A stretch of 64,000 nt of DNA from Gammaproteobacteria bacterium (GTDB taxonomy: Bacteria; Pseudomonadota; Gammaproteobacteria; Eutrophobiales; Eutrophobiaceae), in assembly GCA_965222155.1 (NCBI GenBank), contig CBDCTH010000012.1, forward strand, positions 448,001-512,000. The letters are read 5' to 3'. The position numbers and the translations under genes were made by a program. Shown here piece by piece: positions 1 to 57,646 of this stretch. The notes under the pieces were generated by a model. The model saw nothing but the letters and a program-made list of their open reading frames with translations. It ran no database searches and was not told where the DNA came from. Positions within the stretch are counted from its first letter, which is position 1, and every line of letters starts with the position of its first letter.

Positions 1-2
1 AC

Positions 3-1142
3 ACCCGCAGCTTCAGCGCCCTGCCCAGCGGTCTGGGCGAGTTGACCCGCTGGTTGCTTGGCTACCAGGTCAGCGCCGCGCTGATGGCGGCCACCGGCGT
101 CTACTGGGAGGGGGTCTTCGATGCGCTCGACGGCGCCGGCATTGAACCGCGCCTGGTGCCTGCCCAGCACGTCAAGCAACTCAAGGGACGCAAGACCGAT
201 ATCGCCGACAGCGTCTGGCTGGCGCGTATCTGCCAGTTCGGTCTGTGTACGCCCAGTTTCGTGCCGCCGCCGGCGTTCCGCGACCTGCGCAAGGTGTCAC
301 GCCAACGACGCAAGGTCGTGCGCCTGTGTGCCACCCTGCGCACCCGCACCCATCACATCCTCGACCGCGCCGGCCTGCGGGTGGGCGGCGTGCTCTCGGA
401 CCTGTTCGGCGCCAATGGCCGGCGCATTCTTGACGGGCTTGCCGCCGGCCGCTCGCGCGAGGACATCCTGGCCGCCCTCTCACGTCATGTCCGGCCCCGG
501 CTGGCCGACCTGTGCGATGCGCTCAGCACCCAACTCGCCCCACACGCCCGCTTCATCCTCCGGGACCAGTTGGACGCTTTCGAGCAGGCCCGCGCACGGC
601 GCAACGCCTACGACGCCTTCATCCAAGACCGACTGGCGCCGTACCGCAACCAGATTGACCTGTTGACCACCCTGCCCGGCATCGACCGGGACTCGGCTTG
701 CGCCATCCTCATCGAACTCGGTCCCGACATCCATGTCTTCCCCTCACACCGGCACTGCGCCGCCTGGGCCGGCCTGTGCCCCGGCAACAACGAAAGCGCC
801 GGCAAGAAACGCACCGGCACAACCCGCAAGGGCAACACCGTCCTGCGCAGCATCCTCGTCGAGTGCGCCCACGGCGCCGCCCGGACTATCCAGTGCCAGT
901 GCCAGGGCTACCACAAGGCCCTCACCGTGCGGCGCGGCGACAAGCGGGCGAGCGTCGCCAGCGCCCACAAACTGCTGCGTATCATCTACCGCATGCTCGC
1001 CACCGGCCAGGTCTACCGCGACCCCGACACCGACTACGAGGCGCTCTTGGTCAAGCGCAACGCACCCCGCTGGATAGCCATGTTGAAAAAACACGGCATG
1101 GACCCGGCAACCCGGTCGACAACGACCCAGGCCACCGCCTGA
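3..1142 (+). CDS. IS110-family transposase/recombinase, 5'-truncated by window edge, probably degenerate
   Basis: Frame open from base 3. Motifs M(A)ATGVYW, GRKTDIADSVWLA, LPGID, WAGLCPGNNESAGK, AHKLLR. The usual catalytic Glu of MEATGxYW reads Ala. Confidence 0.93.
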   Translation, partial: TRSFSALPSGLGELTRWLLGYQVSAALMAATGVYWEGVFDALDGAGIEPRLVPAQHVKQLKGRKTDIADSVWLARICQFGLCTPSFVPPPAFRDLRKVSRQRRKVVRLCATLRTRTHHILDRAGLRVGGVLSDLFGANGRRILDGLAAGRSREDILAALSRHVRPRLADLCDALSTQLAPHARFILRDQLDAFEQARARRNAYDAFIQDRLAPYRNQIDLLTTLPGIDRDSACAILIELGPDIHVFPSHRHCAAWAGLCPGNNESAGKKRTGTTRKGNTVLRSILVECAHGAARTIQCQCQGYHKALTVRRGDKRASVASAHKLLRIIYRMLATGQVYRDPDTDYEALLVKRNAPRWIAMLKKHGMDPATRSTTTQATA

Positions 1143-31425: not shown

Positions 31426-32297
31426 TGGCTGTCCTGGTGAATAATGATACAAAGGTAATCGTCCAGGGATTTACCGGGCGCCAGGGCACTTTCCATGCAG
31501 AACAGGCGCTCGAATACGGGACGCAAATAGTCGGTGGCGTTACCCCGGGGCGCGGTGGCCAGACTCACCTGGACAGGCCTGTGTTCAATACCGTAAAAGA
31601 GGCGGTCATGGAAACCGCCGCGGACGCAAGTATGATAATGGTCCCGGCGGCGTTTGCGGCGCAGGCAATTACTGAGGCTGCCGAGGCCGGAATCAGGCTC
31701 ATAGTCTGTATCACCGAAGGCATCCCGATTATTGATATGGTCAGGGCCCGCGCCAGCATCGACCTGTATCCTGGAGTAAGGTTGATCGGCCCCAACTGCC
31801 CCGGCATCATTACGCCGGGGGAATGCAAGATAGGCATTATGCCGGGCCATATCCACAAGCCCGGTTGTATCGGTATCGTTTCCCGCTCGGGCACTTTAAC
31901 CTATGAGGCGGTACACCAGACCACACTGGCCGGACTTGGCCAGAGCACCTGTATCGGCGTCGGTGGCGATCCGATACACGGCATGAATTTCATTGATTGC
32001 CTGGAGCTGTTTCAACAGGACCCAGCCACAACCGGCATCATCATGGTGGGCGAGATAGGCGGCAGCGCCGAAGAGGAAGCGGCAGAGTTTATCGGACAGT
32101 ATGCCAATAAACCCGTAGTAGGTTATATTGCTGGCGTTACTGCGCCCCCGGGAAGGCGCATGGGACATGCCGGCGCGATTATTTCAGGCGGCAAAGGGAG
32201 TGCGAGCGACAAATTCTCCGCGCTTGATGCCGCCGGCGTAACAACCGTCAAGTCACCTGCCGAACTGGGTGAGGCTATTGCCGCAAAATTAAAGTGA
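31425..32297 (+). CDS. sucD: succinyl-CoA synthetase alpha subunit
   Basis: QGFTG..GTFH, GPNCPG, RMGHAGA. Confidence 0.98.
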
Positions 32298-34153
32298 ACA
32301 GAGTCGCTATTGCCCAGGTTGATTTGTGTGTCGGCGATATAGACGGTAATACGGAACTGGTTCTTGAATACATTTCCAGGGCCAGAGGCAGCGCCGGCGC
32401 AGATACGATAATATTCCCCGAGTTGGCCCTGACCGGTTATCCGCCGGAAGACCTGTTATTGCGTCCTCATTTCCACGTACAGGTGGAACAGGCCTTGCAA
32501 CGAGTGATGCACGGGTCGCAGGGCATAAGCGTTGTCCTCGGCTATCCGACGCAAAAAGAGACGCGCCTGTATAACTCCTGCAGTCTGGTCAGGGACGGGG
32601 AGGTCGTCACAACCTACCATAAAAGAAACTTGCCCAATTACGGTGTTTTCGACGAAAAACGTTATTTTACCGAGGGAGAAGAGCTGAATCTGGTTGAAAC
32701 CCCGGACCTCAAGGTTGCGCTGAGTGTATGTGAGGACCTGTGGACCGAAGACCACGTCAGCGAAGCAGCCGGCGCCGGGGCGGAGCTGCTGATCAATATC
32801 AACGCCTCTCCCTACCACACAGACAAATCCAGTGTCAGGGAGGTACTGCTGAAGCGCCGCGCCGTTGACCATAATATAGCGATCATCTACGTCAACCTGG
32901 TGGGCGGCCAGGATGAACTGATATTCGACGGTGGTTCCCTGGTCATAGATTGCCGTGGTGAATTCGTCTTCAAAGCCCCGCAGTTTGAACAGGGTCTGTA
33001 CCTGGTGGAGCTGGGACGGGCGGCGGCAGGCGCTATTACCGTGGAAGCCAAATCAGTGCAGTGTCCGCCCCTGGACTTTACCGAGAGCGTCTACCGGGCA
33101 CTGGTGCTTGGCGTCAAGGATTACGTGTTGAAAAACGGTTTCAAGGGTGCGGTTATCGGTTTGTCGGGCGGTATCGACTCGGCGCTGACCCTGGCTATCG
33201 CCGTGGATGCGCTCGGTCCGGAAAACGTTGAAGTGCTGCTGCTGCCGTCCCGTTACACTGCCGCCATGAGTGTCGAAGACGCACAGGAAATGGCCGATAA
33301 GCTGGGTGTCTCCTGCCATACGGTGAGTATTGAAAAACCTTTTTCGGCGTTCGCGGAAATTTTGTCACCGGTTTTCAAGGATCTCCCTATGGCCCGGACT
33401 TCTCACCAGGTGATGCGCCCTTGCTTGTCTTTTTTGCGCCAGTGGGCACGTGTTCCCTCAACCATAGCTACGGCTATGCGTTCGTTCGCAGGCGCCCACT
33501 GGCGCAAAAAATCCGGCGCATTCATTGCGCCCATCCCTGGGCGCAACCCTACGGGCGGCTGTCGCCGTGCAAATCGGCTATCCTGCCGATTTGTCATCGC
33601 ATCACTTGGTGAGAAATCCGAGCAGGACACGACCGAAGAAAATATCCAGGCCCGCTGCCGCGGATTGTTGCTTATGGCCGTATCCAACAAAACCGGCAAG
33701 CTGGTTTTGACGACGGGCAATAAAAGTGAAATGGCGGTGGGTTACGCAACCTTGTACGGGGATATGGCCGGTGGGTTTGCGCCGCTCAAAGACGTGCCGA
33801 AAATCCTGGTCTACAAACTGTCCCGCTGGCGCAACCGGACCGGGGAAATCATTCCGCAACGGATCATCGACCGCCCGCCCAGTGCGGAGTTACGTTTTGA
33901 CCAGAAAGACGAAGACTCCCTGCCTGGCTATGACGTGCTGGATCCGATACTGGAAAAATACATTGAGATGGACCACACTCCGGGTGAGATTATCGAAGCA
34001 GGCTATGACCGGGATACTGTCTACCAGGTGATCAGGCTGGTGGATAAAAATGAATACAAGCGCCGCCAGGCCGCTCCCGGCGTCAGGATCACAGAACGCG
34101 CCTTCGGTCGCGACCGGCGTTATCCTATTACTTCCCGCTACCAGGAAATATAA
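32294..34153 (+). CDS. nadE: glutamine-dependent NAD+ synthetase carrying a ~78-aa in-frame repeat insertion
   Basis: Nitrilase domain (FPEL, CED) and synthetase SGGIDS, EENIQAR, TGNKSE. 619 aa, against ~541 aa without the insert. Confidence 0.95.
33392..33623. mobile_element. element A (MITE-like) inside nadE
   Basis: 26-bp TIRs gcccggacttctcaccaggtgatgcg / cgcatcacttggtgagaaatccgagc. Homologous to 49533-49775 and 57309-57646. Confidence 0.92.
33524..33595. repeat. module B (72 bp, three hairpins) nested in element A
   Basis: attgcgcccatccctgggcgcaa...caaatcggctatcctgccgatttgtc with TC duplicated at the junction. Second copy at 57420-57491. Confidence 0.88.
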
Positions 34154-48040: not shown

Positions 48041-49563
48041 TGATGTTGCCCGTAAACAAGCGTCAAAGCGGTTTTCCATTGCAGATGCTGCTGGAAGGTC
48101 TGACTGATGCACGGGTCGAGGGTGATATTTCAGTTCAGGGGATCAGTTCGGACAGCCGTGAAATTCGCCCGGGTGATTTGTTTCTCGCCTGCCGGGGACC
48201 GAACACCCGCGGCAGCCTGTTCATCAACGCTGCGCTCAAGGCAGGGGCCGCGGCAGTGGTCGTGGATGAGGAATTGCTGTCCGACCTGGACCGGTGCCGG
48301 CCGGCGCTGTTTCCGGTAGCGGATTTACGCGCTAAACTGGGATTGATTGCCGGGCGGTTTTACGGCGATCCCACAAAACAGCTGCACCTCACCGGCGTTA
48401 CGGGAACCAACGGCAAAACCAGCGTAAGCTGGTGGCTGGCGAAACTCCATTCACTGCTGACGCGGACACAGGCGGGTTTGATCGGCACCCTGGGATACGG
48501 GTGTTATCCGCGCCTGCAATCCGGGCTTAATACAACCCCGGGCGCAGTCAGTTTACAGCGCTTGTTTGCCGGCTTCGTCGAAGCGGGCGCGGACACGGCG
48601 TTCATGGAGGTATCATCCCATGCCCTGGATCAGGGGCGCGTCAGCGAAGTCGATTTCGACGTTGCCGTGTTCACCAACCTGAGCCGGGACCATCTGGATT
48701 ACCACCGGAGCCTGGACGAGTACTTCCGCGCCAAACAAAAACTGTTTGCATTCAATTCATTGCGCGCTGCCGTGGTGAACTGTGATGACCCATACGGGCA
48801 GGCAATACTACGCGCTCTGCCGGCGGGCATAGAGGCGATCAGTTACGGTTTATCAGGCAATCCGCAACAGTCGGTTCAGCCTCTCGTCAGGGCAAGGCCG
48901 GCGCCGGGCGCTGAGCTTATCCTGGATATTACCAGTCCCTGGGGCAACGGCCAGGTGCGGCCGGGGGTAACGGGAAAATTCAACGTCGGCAATATACTGG
49001 CGCTGGTTTCGGTGCTGGGGCTGGCAGGGTTCCCGCTTGAGCGCATCCTGGAAAAGCTGGACAACATCGGCCCGGTACCGGGTCGTATGGAGAGTTTCAG
49101 ACGCGCAGACGGCGCCCAAATCGTCGTTGATTACGCCCATACCCCCGCCGCCCTGGAACAGGCCCTGGCAAGTCTGCGGGAATGTTGTGCGGGGCGGTTG
49201 ATCTGTGTTTTCGGCTGTGGCGGCGAACGGGATAAGGAAAAGCGGCCGCAGATGGGAGAACTGGCGGAACAACTTTCCGACGAAGTAATTTTAACTGATG
49301 ACAATCCGAGGTCTGAAGCCGGCGATGACATTATCGAGGCCATCCTCTCCGGCATAACCGCCAAGGGTTGCGCCACTATAGAGCGCAACCGTTCCAGGGC
49401 CATCGAGCTGGCGCTGGGGCGGGCCGGGCCCGCTGACGTGGTATTGATTGCCGGCAAGGGACATGAAACCTGTCAGGAAATTGCAGGTACGCGCTATCCC
49501 TTCAACGATCTGCAGCAGGTCAGGCAGTTGCTAGCCCGGAATTCTCACCAGGTGATGCGATGA
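48037..49563 (+). CDS. murE: UDP-MurNAc-tripeptide synthetase (C-terminus supplied by element A)
   Basis: GTNGKTS, MEVSSH, DYAHTP, DNPR, AGKGHE. Confidence 0.96.
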   Translation: MMMLPVNKRQSGFPLQMLLEGLTDARVEGDISVQGISSDSREIRPGDLFLACRGPNTRGSLFINAALKAGAAAVVVDEELLSDLDRCRPALFPVADLRAKLGLIAGRFYGDPTKQLHLTGVTGTNGKTSVSWWLAKLHSLLTRTQAGLIGTLGYGCYPRLQSGLNTTPGAVSLQRLFAGFVEAGADTAFMEVSSHALDQGRVSEVDFDVAVFTNLSRDHLDYHRSLDEYFRAKQKLFAFNSLRAAVVNCDDPYGQAILRALPAGIEAISYGLSGNPQQSVQPLVRARPAPGAELILDITSPWGNGQVRPGVTGKFNVGNILALVSVLGLAGFPLERILEKLDNIGPVPGRMESFRRADGAQIVVDYAHTPAALEQALASLRECCAGRLICVFGCGGERDKEKRPQMGELAEQLSDEVILTDDNPRSEAGDDIIEAILSGITAKGCATIERNRSRAIELALGRAGPADVVLIAGKGHETCQEIAGTRYPFNDLQQVRQLLARNSHQVMR

Positions 49564-49775
49564 TCGCGCCGGATTTTTGCCGCCAGCGGGTGCCTGCGAC
49601 CGAAAGCATAGCCGTAGTTCTGGTTGAGGGAGCACGTGCCCGCTGGCGGCAAAAAGACAAGCGAGGGCGCATCAAGCGTAGTTTATTCAGATGATATTGT
49701 AGACATGTTACCGCAACCTATTGACAGCAAACAAGTATTAGATGGCAACAAGCGGCTTGGTGAGAATTCCGGGCT
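49533..49775. mobile_element. element A between murE and murF
   Basis: TIR agcccggaattctcacca / tggtgagaattccgggct with a long internal hairpin. Confidence 0.92.
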
Positions 49776-54843: not shown

Positions 54844-55912
54844 CCCGATCATGATCATGGCGGGGGGGACCGGCGGACATGTTTACCCGGCGCTGGCAGT
54901 GGTTGATTACCTGCGCGCACAGGACATACCACTGTTCTGGCTGGGAACGCCGCGCGGGATCGAGAACCGGGTTGTGCCGGAACAGGGAATAGAACTGTTG
55001 ACCGTCAGGGTGAGCGGGGTACGCGGCAAGGCAATTTCAAGCAAGCTGGTTGCGCCACTGAAAATACTGATAGCGATACTCCAGGCCCTGTCCATTTGTA
55101 TTCGGCGGCGGCCGGCGGCGGTCCTCGGAATGGGCGGGTTCGCCAGCGGTCCCGGCGCTATTGCAGCGTGGTTGTTACGCATCCCGTTATTGATCCATGA
55201 ACAGAACAAGGTCGCCGGTACGACCAACAGGATACTGTCCCGGTTCGCCGTGAAGGTGATGCAGGGGTTTCCGGATACTTTCAAGGCCGGCGCCAGGGTT
55301 GTTACCACGGGCAATCCCGTGCGGCGCGAGATCGTGGGACTGCCCGGACCGAAAATCGCCGGGACGCCGAACCGGCCTAATGTCCTGGTGCTGGGCGGTA
55401 GCCTGGGCGCGCAACAACTGAACCGGGTTGTGCCCCTGGGCCTGAACAGGTTGCAACGCAGGTTAAAGGTAAACGTCTGGCATCAATGCGGAGAGAAAAA
55501 CCAGATTGAGACGCAGCGTCTCTATGGGGGTCTGCAACTGGACGAGGTCAGGATCGATGCGTTTATTACCGATATGGCATCAGCCTACCGCTGGGCGGAT
55601 ATCGCCGTGTGCCGGGCCGGCGCGCTGACGATTGCGGAATTATGCGCGGCGGGACTGGCATCGATACTGATACCGTTTCCCCACGCCATAGATGACCATC
55701 AGACAGCCAATGCCCGTTACCTCAGTGACTCCGGCGCCGCGCTACTGCTCCCGGAAACTGAATTGACCAAAGCCAGGATCGAGGACTTGTTGTGGCAGCT
55801 TTGCAGCACGGAGAACAAACTGTTCGAGCTGGCGCAAAAAACCCGGCTGCATGCCTATCCGGATGCCGCGCAGGCAGTAGCTTCATTGTGCCTGGAGCAA
55901 GCTTATGCCTGA
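54833..55912 (+). CDS. murG: lipid II GlcNAc transferase
   Basis: GGTGGHVYP, GGSLGA, RAGALT, DDHQTANA. Confidence 0.97.
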   Translation: MKANPIMIMAGGTGGHVYPALAVVDYLRAQDIPLFWLGTPRGIENRVVPEQGIELLTVRVSGVRGKAISSKLVAPLKILIAILQALSICIRRRPAAVLGMGGFASGPGAIAAWLLRIPLLIHEQNKVAGTTNRILSRFAVKVMQGFPDTFKAGARVVTTGNPVRREIVGLPGPKIAGTPNRPNVLVLGGSLGAQQLNRVVPLGLNRLQRRLKVNVWHQCGEKNQIETQRLYGGLQLDEVRIDAFITDMASAYRWADIAVCRAGALTIAELCAAGLASILIPFPHAIDDHQTANARYLSDSGAALLLPETELTKARIEDLLWQLCSTENKLFELAQKTRLHAYPDAAQAVASLCLEQAYA

Positions 55913-57335
55913 TGGGCACAACATGGGTCGCGTCAGGCATATCCATTTTGTCGGTATTGGCGGAGCCGGCATGAGCGGGATAGCCGAAGTCCTGCATAAC
56001 CTGGGCTATACGGTGTCAGGCACGGACCTGAAGCAGGGCAACAGCACGGAACGGCTTGCAGACATGGGTGTCGAGGTGCGCTTTGAACACGAAGCGGAAT
56101 GTGTGAACGGCAGCGACGTGGTTGTTTATTCAAGCGCGATCCCGGCAGACAATCCGGAGTTGTCGGCAGCGCGCCGACAACGCATACCGATCATCCCGCG
56201 GGCCGAGATGCTGTCTGAACTGATGCGTTTCAGGGAAGGGGTTGCGGTAGCCGGCACCCACGGCAAGACGACAACAACCAGCCTGATCGCCAGCCTGCTG
56301 GCGGAAGGCATGTTCGACCCGACCTATATCATCGGTGGGCGCTTGAACATGACAGGTTCCCATGCCCGGCTCGGCAAGGGGAAATACATGGTAGCCGAGG
56401 CGGATGAGAGTGATGCCTCCTTCCTGCACCTGCAACCTGTCTATGCCGTGCTGACGAATATCGATGCCGATCACCTGGAGTACTGTGGCGGCAGTTACCA
56501 GGCGTTGCAAAACAACTTTATAGACTTCCTGCACTGCCTGCCGTTTTACGGTCTGGTGGTCATCTGCAGCGATGACGCCGGTATCCGCGGTATCGTCACC
56601 CGCATAAACCGGCCTTATGTCACCTATGGGATTGATTCCGACGCGGATTACCGGGCGGAAGCGATTCAATATGACGGGCCGACAACCCGGTTCAACATAG
56701 TGCGCCGCAACCAGGATGACGCGTTCCGGGTAACGCTGAACCTGCCGGGCCGGCATAACGTCCTGAATGCCCTGGCGGCAGTGGCGCTGGCTATCGAACT
56801 GGGCGTGTCGGAACAGGCAATAAGCGCCGGATTGGCAAACTTCCAGGGCATAGACCGCAGGAGTTCGATCCTGGGTGATATCCATATCGACGGCAAGACC
56901 GTATTGCTTATCGACGATTATGCCCACCACCCCAGTGAAATAGCCGCTATCAATAATGCTCTTGCTGACGGTTGGCCCGGCAGGAAAGTGGTCGTCGTGT
57001 TTCAACCGCACCGGTATACCCGTACCCGGGATCTTTTCGAAGAGTTCTGCCAGATATTGTCGGAACTCGACAGCTTGATTCTGCTTGACGTCTATCCCGC
57101 CGGGGAGCGCCCCATCAAGGGCGCCGACAGCCGTTCCCTGAGCCGGGCGCTCAGGGTCAGGGGCAAGGTGGAGCCTATTCTCGTCAACAATGAAACGGAA
57201 TTGCTGGCCGTGCTGGAAAACCTTACGGCGCAGAACGATATCCTGTTGCTGCTGGGCGCAGGAGATATCAGCGCCCTCGGTAGCCGGTTGCTCGACGTGT
57301 ACGGCACCAGCCCACATTTCTCACCAGATCGCTAG
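55905..57335 (+). CDS. murC: UDP-MurNAc:L-Ala ligase (C-terminus supplied by element A)
   Basis: GIGGAGMSG, GTHGKTTT, EADESD, DDYAHHP. Confidence 0.97.
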   Translation: MPDGHNMGRVRHIHFVGIGGAGMSGIAEVLHNLGYTVSGTDLKQGNSTERLADMGVEVRFEHEAECVNGSDVVVYSSAIPADNPELSAARRQRIPIIPRAEMLSELMRFREGVAVAGTHGKTTTTSLIASLLAEGMFDPTYIIGGRLNMTGSHARLGKGKYMVAEADESDASFLHLQPVYAVLTNIDADHLEYCGGSYQALQNNFIDFLHCLPFYGLVVICSDDAGIRGIVTRINRPYVTYGIDSDADYRAEAIQYDGPTTRFNIVRRNQDDAFRVTLNLPGRHNVLNALAAVALAIELGVSEQAISAGLANFQGIDRRSSILGDIHIDGKTVLLIDDYAHHPSEIAAINNALADGWPGRKVVVVFQPHRYTRTRDLFEEFCQILSELDSLILLDVYPAGERPIKGADSRSLSRALRVRGKVEPILVNNETELLAVLENLTAQNDILLLLGAGDISALGSRLLDVYGTSPHFSPDR

Positions 57336-57646
57336 TTGCCCTCCGATAATTTATTGCTATCAATACATAATGATAATTCACTTACTATATAGACATTACA
57401 GACTGCGCTTGATGCGTTCATTGCATCCATCCCTGGACGCAACCCTACGGGCGGCTATCGCCGTGCAAATCGGCTGTCCTGCCGATTTGTCTCGCTTGTC
57501 TTTTTCCCGCCAACGGGTACGTGCTCCCTCAACCAGAGTCCCAGCTATGCTTTCGGTCCCCGTATCAAGTACGGGGCAGACTCCGGCACCCGTTGGTGGG
57601 AAAAATCCTGCGCGATCATCGCATCACCTGATGAGAAATGCGGGCT
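57309..57646. mobile_element. element A between murC and murB with nested modules B and C
   Basis: TIR agcccacatttctcaccag / ctgatgagaaatgcgggct. Module B at 57420-57491, module C at 57558-57582. Confidence 0.9.

Follow-up and report, generated by a model that had tools for sequence, protein, structure and literature searches.

A 72-nt hairpin module without terminal inverted repeats is very probably mobile on its own in one genus of Gammaproteobacteria

We analyzed a 64,000-nt stretch of contig CBDCTH010000012.1 (assembly GCA_965222155.1; the whole stretch is hereafter called the window) from a gammaproteobacterial genome labelled G000 (4.55 Mb, 12 contigs, 53% G+C), and we focused on a 72-nt module, termed B, which is present twice, each time within a copy of a larger repeat, termed element A (Table 1). 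The two copies differ at 5 of 72 positions; their equal length and their different positions within A, both of which had been noted in a preliminary description of this DNA, were confirmed. Copy 1, together with the element A that surrounds it, lies inside nadE, the gene for a glutamine-dependent NAD+ synthetase. Our main finding is that B is very probably an independently mobile module, which has been gained or lost separately from its host element and recurs with the same borders at many unrelated places in the genomes of one genus.

The evidence for independent gain or loss was obtained by comparing the contexts in which B is found. Pooling 133 copies with two ends over all genomes and clustering them by loose single-linkage on either flank yielded 18 flank clusters. 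Within A, B occupies three sites (a, cacgtgTTC[B]cctcaacc; b, gatgcgTTC[B]tcgcttgtc; c, gcgcgTTC[B]atcgcatc), of which site a is the loop of a large hairpin of A, and the corresponding clusters comprise 40 members for site a and 18 each for sites b and c. In the window, copy 1 lies close to the right terminal inverted repeat (TIR) of its host (ggcgcaTTC[B]atcgcatcac) and copy 2 to the left of the inner hairpin of A (gatgcgTTC[B]tcgcttgtc). The A copy near 49.5 kb, which had been described as empty at both of these positions, indeed reads uninterrupted through sites a, b and c, site a being used elsewhere in the genome.

Similar filled and empty pairs were found outside A. Two ISAs1-like transposase paralogues each hold B where the other is empty, the native site being TTCAT in both, and an IS5-like transposase gene also holds B, in three copies. 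At the start of proA, the site is filled in G000 and G006 and empty (TCAT) in G014, G002, G004 and G010, and the closest relative, G032, carries a degraded B with a 45-nt repeat inside. At the start of trpB, B is present in G000 alone, and the site is vacant in G032 and G014 (..TTCAT/..CGACAT). G016 has an intact, empty IS605-like element, whose counterparts in G004 and G031 carry a diverged B in the hairpin loop of the left end (LE). The view that B is gained or lost independently of A is thus borne out by the 18 context clusters, by filled and empty pairs within and between genomes, and by a nadE allele lacking precisely 72 nt (see below); since B is also found at proA, at trpB and in insertion sequence (IS) genes, it is not confined to two positions connected by recombination.

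At nadE, positions 33388-33624 (237 nt) replace a CGT of the closest relative (..ctccc CGT ggatac..), which adds 234 nt net to the gene. Of the 78 extra codons, 54 come from A and 24 from B. The product matches NCBIfam NF010588 with 748 bits (cut-off 479) in two stretches, and in the comparison with PDB 4f4h its residues 2-362 and 444-618 align, residues 363-443 standing where that chain has 3 residues. The nadE flanks abut without an insert in 21 of the 22 other genus genomes compared; in the remaining one, G011 (83% complete), nadE was not found. As nadE is single-copy in G000, selection probably let through only insertions that kept the frame and brought no stop codon, although one insertion in three would have a length divisible by three by chance anyway. 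The earlier statement that B preserves the reading frame is accurate for copy 1, which contributes its codons to an intact frame, and for this copy only.

As allele evidence we used contigs of three public runs (X1, X3 and X5). In X5, a 225-nt contig (depth 79.5) joins 33526 to 33599, skipping 72 nt, and extends past the right end of A into nadE sequence that is unique. A second contig, of 268 nt and similar depth (73.6), runs from nadE into A, and a third one (depth 30.9) skips all 237 nt and has CGT in place. In X1 and X3, zero-mismatch contigs tile the allele carrying both A and B at a uniform depth of about 157 and about 200, respectively; as these runs may be the source sample, they do not support this allele independently. 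Taken together, nadE alleles without insert, with A alone and with A and B exist within one species-level group, and the presence of nadE::A lacking B in a related strain indicates that B was gained, or precisely lost, at nadE on its own.

The borders of B are consistent across contexts. The left border reads TCAT in 18 of 18 contexts, preceded by T (12), C (5) or G (1), and the last three bases of B are GTC (14), GTT (2), ATC (1) or GTG (1). In 7 of the 18 contexts the two bases that follow B are AT, where about one such case is expected by chance, and apart from TCAT only a weak pyrimidine preference is common to the contexts. All empty sites found outside A read TCAT, and at one locus (L007) two adjacent copies have a single GTCAT in common. 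Given the invariant TCAT and the empty sites that read TCAT, the duplication accompanying B can be read as TC in all contexts or as TCAT in 7 of 18; overall, readings of 0, 2 or 4 nt are compatible with the data, and the combination of NTCAT always on the left with mostly GTC(AT) on the right fits a pair of transposon-associated and transposon-encoded motifs (TAM/TEM) and also a 2-4-nt duplication. The description that fits all contexts is that of a unit ATTGCG...GATTTGTC joined 3' of NTC or, equivalently, of a 70-nt unit with a TC duplication, with a preference for TCAT targets that leaves TCAT on both sides. The TTC site with TC duplication proposed previously is an acceptable description but too narrow a one, since T precedes in 12 of 18 contexts only and TCAT is the invariant part.

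With respect to its structure, B contains no open reading frame (ORF), and its ends are not complementary (left end, ATTGCGCC; reverse complement of the right end, GACAAATCG), in agreement with the previous statement that it lacks TIRs. The repeat shared among copies consistently starts 3 nt ahead of B, at TTC, giving a shared unit of 75 nt. Folding of B as DNA resulted in four consecutive hairpins, and not three as first described: H1 (9 bp), a CCC-NNN-GGG mini-stem (3 bp), H2 (4 bp) and H3 (9 bp), H1 beginning 1 nt past TTCA and H3 finishing 2 nt short of the right end. The z-scores of these folds range from -4.3 to -6.5, and none of 200 shuffled sequences folded equally well. The motif caaatcggc-N6-gccgatttgtc occurs in the window at the two B loci only, with 4 strand-wise matches compared to 0.02 expected from 100 shuffles.

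The hairpins of B are maintained through compensatory change. Between the two window copies, H1 shows the one compensatory change already reported (C:G to T:A in copy 2) and, in addition, one A.C mismatch. In a larger set of 103 indel-free copies, drawn from G000 and from loci fetched from its relatives and corresponding to 73 distinct sequences, double changes are present in all three main stems: in H1 at positions 10-23 (GC 57/AT 8), 11-22 (CG 39/TA 26) and 12-21 (CG 63/AT 8), in H2 at 38-47 (GC 63/AT 9), and in H3 at 56-69 (CG 68/TA 5) and 58-67 (TA 38/GC 33), where the numbers are counts of cells among related sequences and not of independent events. Single-sided intermediates are found on both strands, so that covariation does not tell which strand is selected, nor whether the DNA or the RNA form is. 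At gathering thresholds, Rfam matched only RNase P and one tRNA in the whole window, and a permissive scan of 33380-33640 (E up to 10) returned three chance-level matches (MIR1222 twice and Xoo1), far under the gathering scores.

Table 1. Window coordinates of the two copies of module B, of the hairpins of copy 1 and of the elements and gene that host them
Feature	Position	Strand	Remarks
nadE, glutamine-dependent NAD+ synthetase	32294..34153	+	619 codons, open through A and B
Element A, short form	33392..33623	+	miniature inverted-repeat transposable element (MITE), hosts B copy 1; TIR arms 33392-33417/33598-33623
Module B, copy 1	33524..33595	+	72 nt; site c of element A; shared repeat from TTC at 33521
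B copy 1, H1	33525-33533/33538-33546		DNA fold
B copy 1, mini-stem	33547-33549/33553-33555		DNA fold
B copy 1, H2	33556-33559/33564-33567		DNA fold
B copy 1, H3	33570-33578/33585-33593		DNA fold
Element A, long form	49533..49775	-	no B; 18-nt perfect TIRs 49533-49550/49758-49775
Element A, long form	57309..57646	+	AT-rich left part, hosts B copy 2; TIR arms 57309-57327/57628-57646
Module B, copy 2	57420..57491	+	72 nt; site b of long-form element A

Across G000 we counted 69 left ends of B with a right end 57-196 nt away, and a full-length profile gave 72 matches. The 69 copies comprise 33 plain units, 14 with 27-30 extra nt in the H1 loop, 14 with about 56 extra nt in the same loop, which represent a second module nested in the first, one of intermediate spacing, and 7 with a further insert of ~130 nt (left-right spacing 187-196 compared to 59) that is largely a module placed directly before H3. 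Matches to B were sampled in 18 same-genus genomes and in 12 genomes of other families: B was matched in 15 of the former, mostly aligned over positions 1-75 or 2-75, and a weak match was obtained in only one of the latter. A pattern scan of a genome contig collection detected the B core in four assemblies only, all titled 'MAG: Gammaproteobacteria bacterium' (MAG, metagenome-assembled genome), and distant blastn searches of a plasmid collection with A plus B gave no match.

Small modules nest at fixed places within B, for instance at C12:2225558, C12:215872 and C12:3120608 of G000 and at locus L024 of G032. A further module of ~27 nt lies inside the own hairpin of the H1-loop module, the insert ahead of H3 amounts to about 130 nt when counted with the H1 modules, and a 45-nt repeat lies in the 3' arm of H3. 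The junctions of the H1-loop module are ambiguous by at most 1 nt, indicating that this module makes no duplication. What is unusual here is the recursion, in which at least four different small modules are nested, every one of them lodged at a fixed position of the next; a search of the literature on sponge-associated bacteria or nested TIR-less MITEs found no description of it, which is no proof of its absence from print. In several relatives (G005 and G010, loci L116-L121 and L126; G007, G010 and G004, loci L153-L162, L125 and L130), B is part of other repeat families with extra hairpins, such as ..cgtcACTCAT[B]GTCccgcgaaggcgggaatccagt; the left flanks of this family are unique, which suggests that in these species the mobile form may be the longer unit. 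Nested repeats of this kind fragment the assemblies that short reads yield for these uncultured bacteria, and an intact gene that holds them can be taken for a disrupted one.

Two G000 copies outside the window (C12:2987953-2988024 and C12:56482-56553) lie exactly at the start codons of the proA-like and trpB-like genes, where the CAT of the TCAT border is the ATG. In both, the H1 loop reads CCTCC, so that a hairpin loop of the mRNA strand exposes AGGAGG at a distance of 6 nt upstream of the ATG, and the H1 stem is kept through paired changes.

We next turn to the enzyme that might move B, for which 23 genomes of the genus were searched. The preliminary description had called the mobiliser unknown, and in line with this no Y1, IS110 or IS91 element with B-like ends was found in these genomes. 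Some Y1 match is present in 15 of the 23, and G000 itself has two RAYT-like genes (RAYT, REP-associated tyrosine transposase; REP, repetitive extragenic palindromic unit) and one fragment, all three without B-like flanks; wherever the 27 Y1 loci of the 23 genomes include a RAYT-like gene, no B-like sequence lies within 1.5 kb of it. One RAYT-like gene of G000 (L011 1420-2290; C12:2623858-2624728) is bracketed by an inverted repeat of its own (GGGGACACAATACTTAATT), and a second, tandem copy of its final ~130 nt, that repeat included, follows downstream. The larger elements with the same ends and a transposase, for which a search had been suggested, did not emerge, neither at the 27 Y1 loci nor among pairs of B ends in G000, where no kilobase-spaced pair encloses a gene and true left ends either have a right end at most 196 nt away or are truncated. 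We considered B as the left end of the IS605-like element of G004, G016 and G031 and rejected this possibility, as the intact G016 copy shows that B was inserted into the LE hairpin loop. IS91 (Y2), considered because many copies of B follow GTTC, is absent from 21 of the 23 genomes. TnpB (PF07282) was not detected in G000.

IS110-type genes occur in 14 of the 23 genomes, including two in G000, one with a stop codon and one (DEDD) that extends across the left edge of the window (window 1-368, starting at G000:C12:447925). The gene at the edge is single-copy and surrounded by many unrelated 80-190-nt repeats, and no B ends were found around it. In G005, a 1801-bp IS110 element is present in 10 copies of equal score. 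Two of its four junction-read copies (L183 and L185) lie in a hairpin of another repeat (..ccgt/ctctaaaaatgcc/acgg.., slashes marking the junctions), a third (L173) adjoins an intact copy of that hairpin site, and a copy of B lies about 40 nt from the element in L183 and L184. Because this element targets the hairpin of a different repeat, its proximity to B is a by-product. Across the genus, the co-occurrence of B with Y1, IS110 or TnpB showed no pattern.

In the model that we favour, B is a non-autonomous, TIR-less mobile module of one genus, with a net length of 72 nt and four back-to-back hairpins, that has entered many unrelated places at 5'-(T/C)TC/AT-3' (the slash between C and A marking the point of entry). 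After entry, its left side reads NTCAT and its right side GTC, in many cases GTCAT. It lands in other repeats, IS transposase genes, hairpin loops and ATGA start codons, and composites holding it then multiply as units. Both ends might be cut and joined between the C and the A of (T/G)TCAT motifs by an enzyme supplied in trans, the likeliest being a single-strand HUH enzyme (Y1, IS200/IS605- or RAYT-like) that would recognise the terminal hairpins. A HUH enzyme is favoured by the lack of TIRs, the covarying terminal hairpins, the alike border motifs, the insertion into hairpin loops, the head-to-tail copies and the scar-free empty allele. We would give this explanation as a whole, a mobile module with a trans-acting HUH-type enzyme, somewhat less than an even chance of being right, and the HUH-type mechanism specifically, which is argued by analogy, is put forward a shade more tentatively still. 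With regard to the two chemistries of which B had been said to be reminiscent, IS110 is unlikely, as the flanks are unrelated, and HUH provides the best analogy, although no cognate transposase was found and no strand bias was seen.

Several observations weigh against this model. No cognate enzyme for B was found. The two RAYT-like genes of G000 fall under the NCBIfam cut-off (72.8 and 71 compared to 80) and neither has a B-like sequence within 1.5 kb, and a classical IS200-type TnpA (over 100 bits) occurs in just 3 of the 23 genomes. In G005, a single-contig genome estimated as 98% complete, B was matched at least 30 times and Y1 not at all. Scanning the 27 Y1 loci with a profile of B gave one match, which is an insertion in the LE hairpin and not an element end. 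There is no orientation bias relative to replichores defined by GC skew (24+/15- and 10+/8-), a weak test given that most B copies ride inside A. Moreover, the left motif and H1 stand too close together to accommodate a guide tetranucleotide, which sets B apart from the IS608-type ends described in PMC8266576; with just 1 nt separating TTCA from H1, a canonical arrangement seems impossible at this end. The target site raises difficulties as well: the usual empty triplets at sites a, b and c of A are CTC (41), CCC (77) and ATC (72), counted with fuzzy patterns that include background matches, and, as they are not TTC, insertions there need rare variants or later change; a pure model of insertion 3' of TTC also leaves the enrichment of AT downstream unexplained. 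Finally, the X5 allele without B is represented by one short metagenome contig that crosses repeats and is possibly chimeric, and gain and precise loss of B would look alike in it.

The absence of a linked transposase from 23 genomes raises the question of whether B needs a dedicated mobiliser at all. Microhomology-driven template switching or illegitimate recombination at TCAT, a 4-nt direct repeat around many donor copies, aided by hairpins and together with gene conversion among A copies, would account for the 7 of 18 contexts in which TCAT flanks B on either side, for the empty sites outside A that read TCAT and for the single GTCAT of adjacent copies; the X5 allele without B, too, reads like the product of a deletion between two near-repeats, TCATTGC and TCATCGC. 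However, 4-nt homology would rarely yield the same exact borders in 18 unrelated contexts and many species, the right side has only TC or less in 11 of the 18, and the compensatory changes in the hairpins suggest recognition by something; we consider this process unlikely, though its probability is not negligible. Movement by an IS110-family (DEDD) recombinase via a 2-nt TC core, which the lack of TIRs, the TC on both sides in most contexts and the presence of such genes in 14 of 23 genomes, G000 included, would suit, appears quite improbable to us: the flanks past TCAT are unrelated among the 18 contexts, in contrast to the long specific target of the G005 element, the gene at the window edge is single-copy with no B ends around it, and 7 of the 9 genomes in which no IS110 match was obtained have B matches. 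We know of no gene-less IS110 derivatives.

B might also not be mobile alone, travelling in composite repeats and reaching its positions in A via recombination between A variants. Most B copies do reside inside A or other repeat families, each composite of A and B has multiplied, and the size classes of A step by about 72 nt; this scenario is nevertheless already contradicted by copies with identical borders that lie in unique sequence where proA and trpB start, by those in IS genes with empty paralogues, and by the nadE::A contig lacking exactly 72 nt, and we regard it as highly improbable. Slightly less implausible than movement by IS110, yet still improbable, is that selection conserves B mainly for a structural role as an RNA or DNA signal (a terminator, an RNA stabiliser, a protein-binding site or a portable 5' leader). 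Its hairpins are conserved with covariation, and at proA and trpB the reverse-strand H1 loop has AGGAGG 6 nt before the ATG that B supplies; but no Rfam family was matched, no single signal function explains copies in both orientations, in genes, in IS elements and in other repeats, and the arrival of the copies is not accounted for. The weight that remains falls on movement of B by an enzyme of no recognised kind. A broader speculation, which we consider rather unlikely, is that B and its nested modules may constitute a class of TIR-less hairpin modules not described so far, which would depend on a non-recognised or domesticated enzyme acting in trans. Such modules would insert into single-stranded loops at TCAT-like sites, build mosaics by recursive nesting, and settle in frame inside essential genes as well as at start codons, evolving a ribosome-binding site there.

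Gene-less repeats such as REPs, palindrome-associated transposable elements (PATEs), Rickettsia palindromic elements (RPEs) and MITEs are abundant, and the movement of few of them is understood. The genus analyzed here offers a clean natural experiment in this respect: a 72-nt unit with exact borders, many filled and empty pairs, recursive nesting, an in-frame copy in an essential gene and three nadE allele types in one species-level group. The search for the mobiliser, and the question of what 78 extra residues cost or bring NAD synthetase, thereby become open to direct tests. PATEs are gene-less derivatives of IS200/IS605 elements. B resembles them in lacking TIRs, in carrying hairpins at both ends and in having a left-flank motif similar to the motif at its right end; its insertion, too, can be read as lacking a true duplication. 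According to PMC10055086, IS200/IS605 elements insert without target-site duplication and excise without a scar, and TTCAT is a documented TAM of one such element, a further likeness to B. In contrast to PATEs, no IS with B ends and no cognate TnpA was found in the 23 genomes, the border motifs of B abut the hairpins directly, no replication-strand bias is seen, and B is very small (72 nt) with four hairpins.

For REP units, PMC8266576, PMC3337134 and PMC2817692 point to probable mobilisation in trans by the RAYT, a Y1 enzyme encoded by a single-copy gene. Like REPs, bacterial interspersed mosaic elements (BIMEs) and REP doublets forming hairpins (REPINs), B is short, abundant, palindromic and found in mosaic composites, and RAYT-like genes are present in G000. 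However, B has no GTAG-type tetranucleotide, the bases 5' of H1 and H3 being TTCA and CGTG; H1 and H3 are unrelated, so that B is not a REP doublet; it is not clustered around RAYT-like genes; and its mosaics are nested insertions, not alternating arrays of REPs and inverted REPs (iREPs). Overall, B works like a PATE or a REP-type element yet shows neither the tetranucleotide, nor a RAYT gene flanked by the repeats (REPtron), nor the strand bias, nor, in the 23 genomes searched, a cognate transposase.

RPEs are small palindromic repeats that lie in frame in housekeeping genes which stay open, as described in PMC10969869. The nadE gene, which stays open with A and B as 78 in-frame codons and has orthologues without the insert, is similar in this regard; there is, however, no sequence relation, and B is mostly a guest of other repeats and not of genes. 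From IS110/IS1111 elements B differs by having no long specific target, only TCAT with a weak pyrimidine preference. In classical bacterial MITEs, such as Correia and ERIC, TIRs are present and a DDE transposase generates a target duplication of fixed length. B shares with them its size class, its copy number, the absence of a transposase gene and the internal insertions that create size classes, whereas TIRs and a fixed duplication fit the host A and not B.

Element A is an ordinary MITE, with TIRs and a fixed target duplication. The TIRs of the short form in nadE are 26 nt long and imperfect (88% complementary), and the size classes of A rise in steps of about 72 nt. In G000, we counted 84 A elements, two of them in long open frames, and about 408 A-end motifs in the genome. 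The copy at 57309-57646 lies between murC and murB; as the murC ORF (55905-57335) stops inside the left end of A (57309-57335), the element supplies its last residues and the stop codon. The second A-type element in an open frame (G000:C12:629653-629808) is 156 nt, or 52 codons, long, with 240 codons before and 198 after it, and the hosting frame looks like that of a membrane protein. Finally, a 1766-bp IS with a 409-codon open frame is present in two copies (G000:C12:1242098-1243863 and C4:218572-220337); its ends (TAGCCCGCATATCTCAC..) resemble those of A (TAGCCCGGAATTCTCAC..), making it a candidate parent or mobiliser of A.

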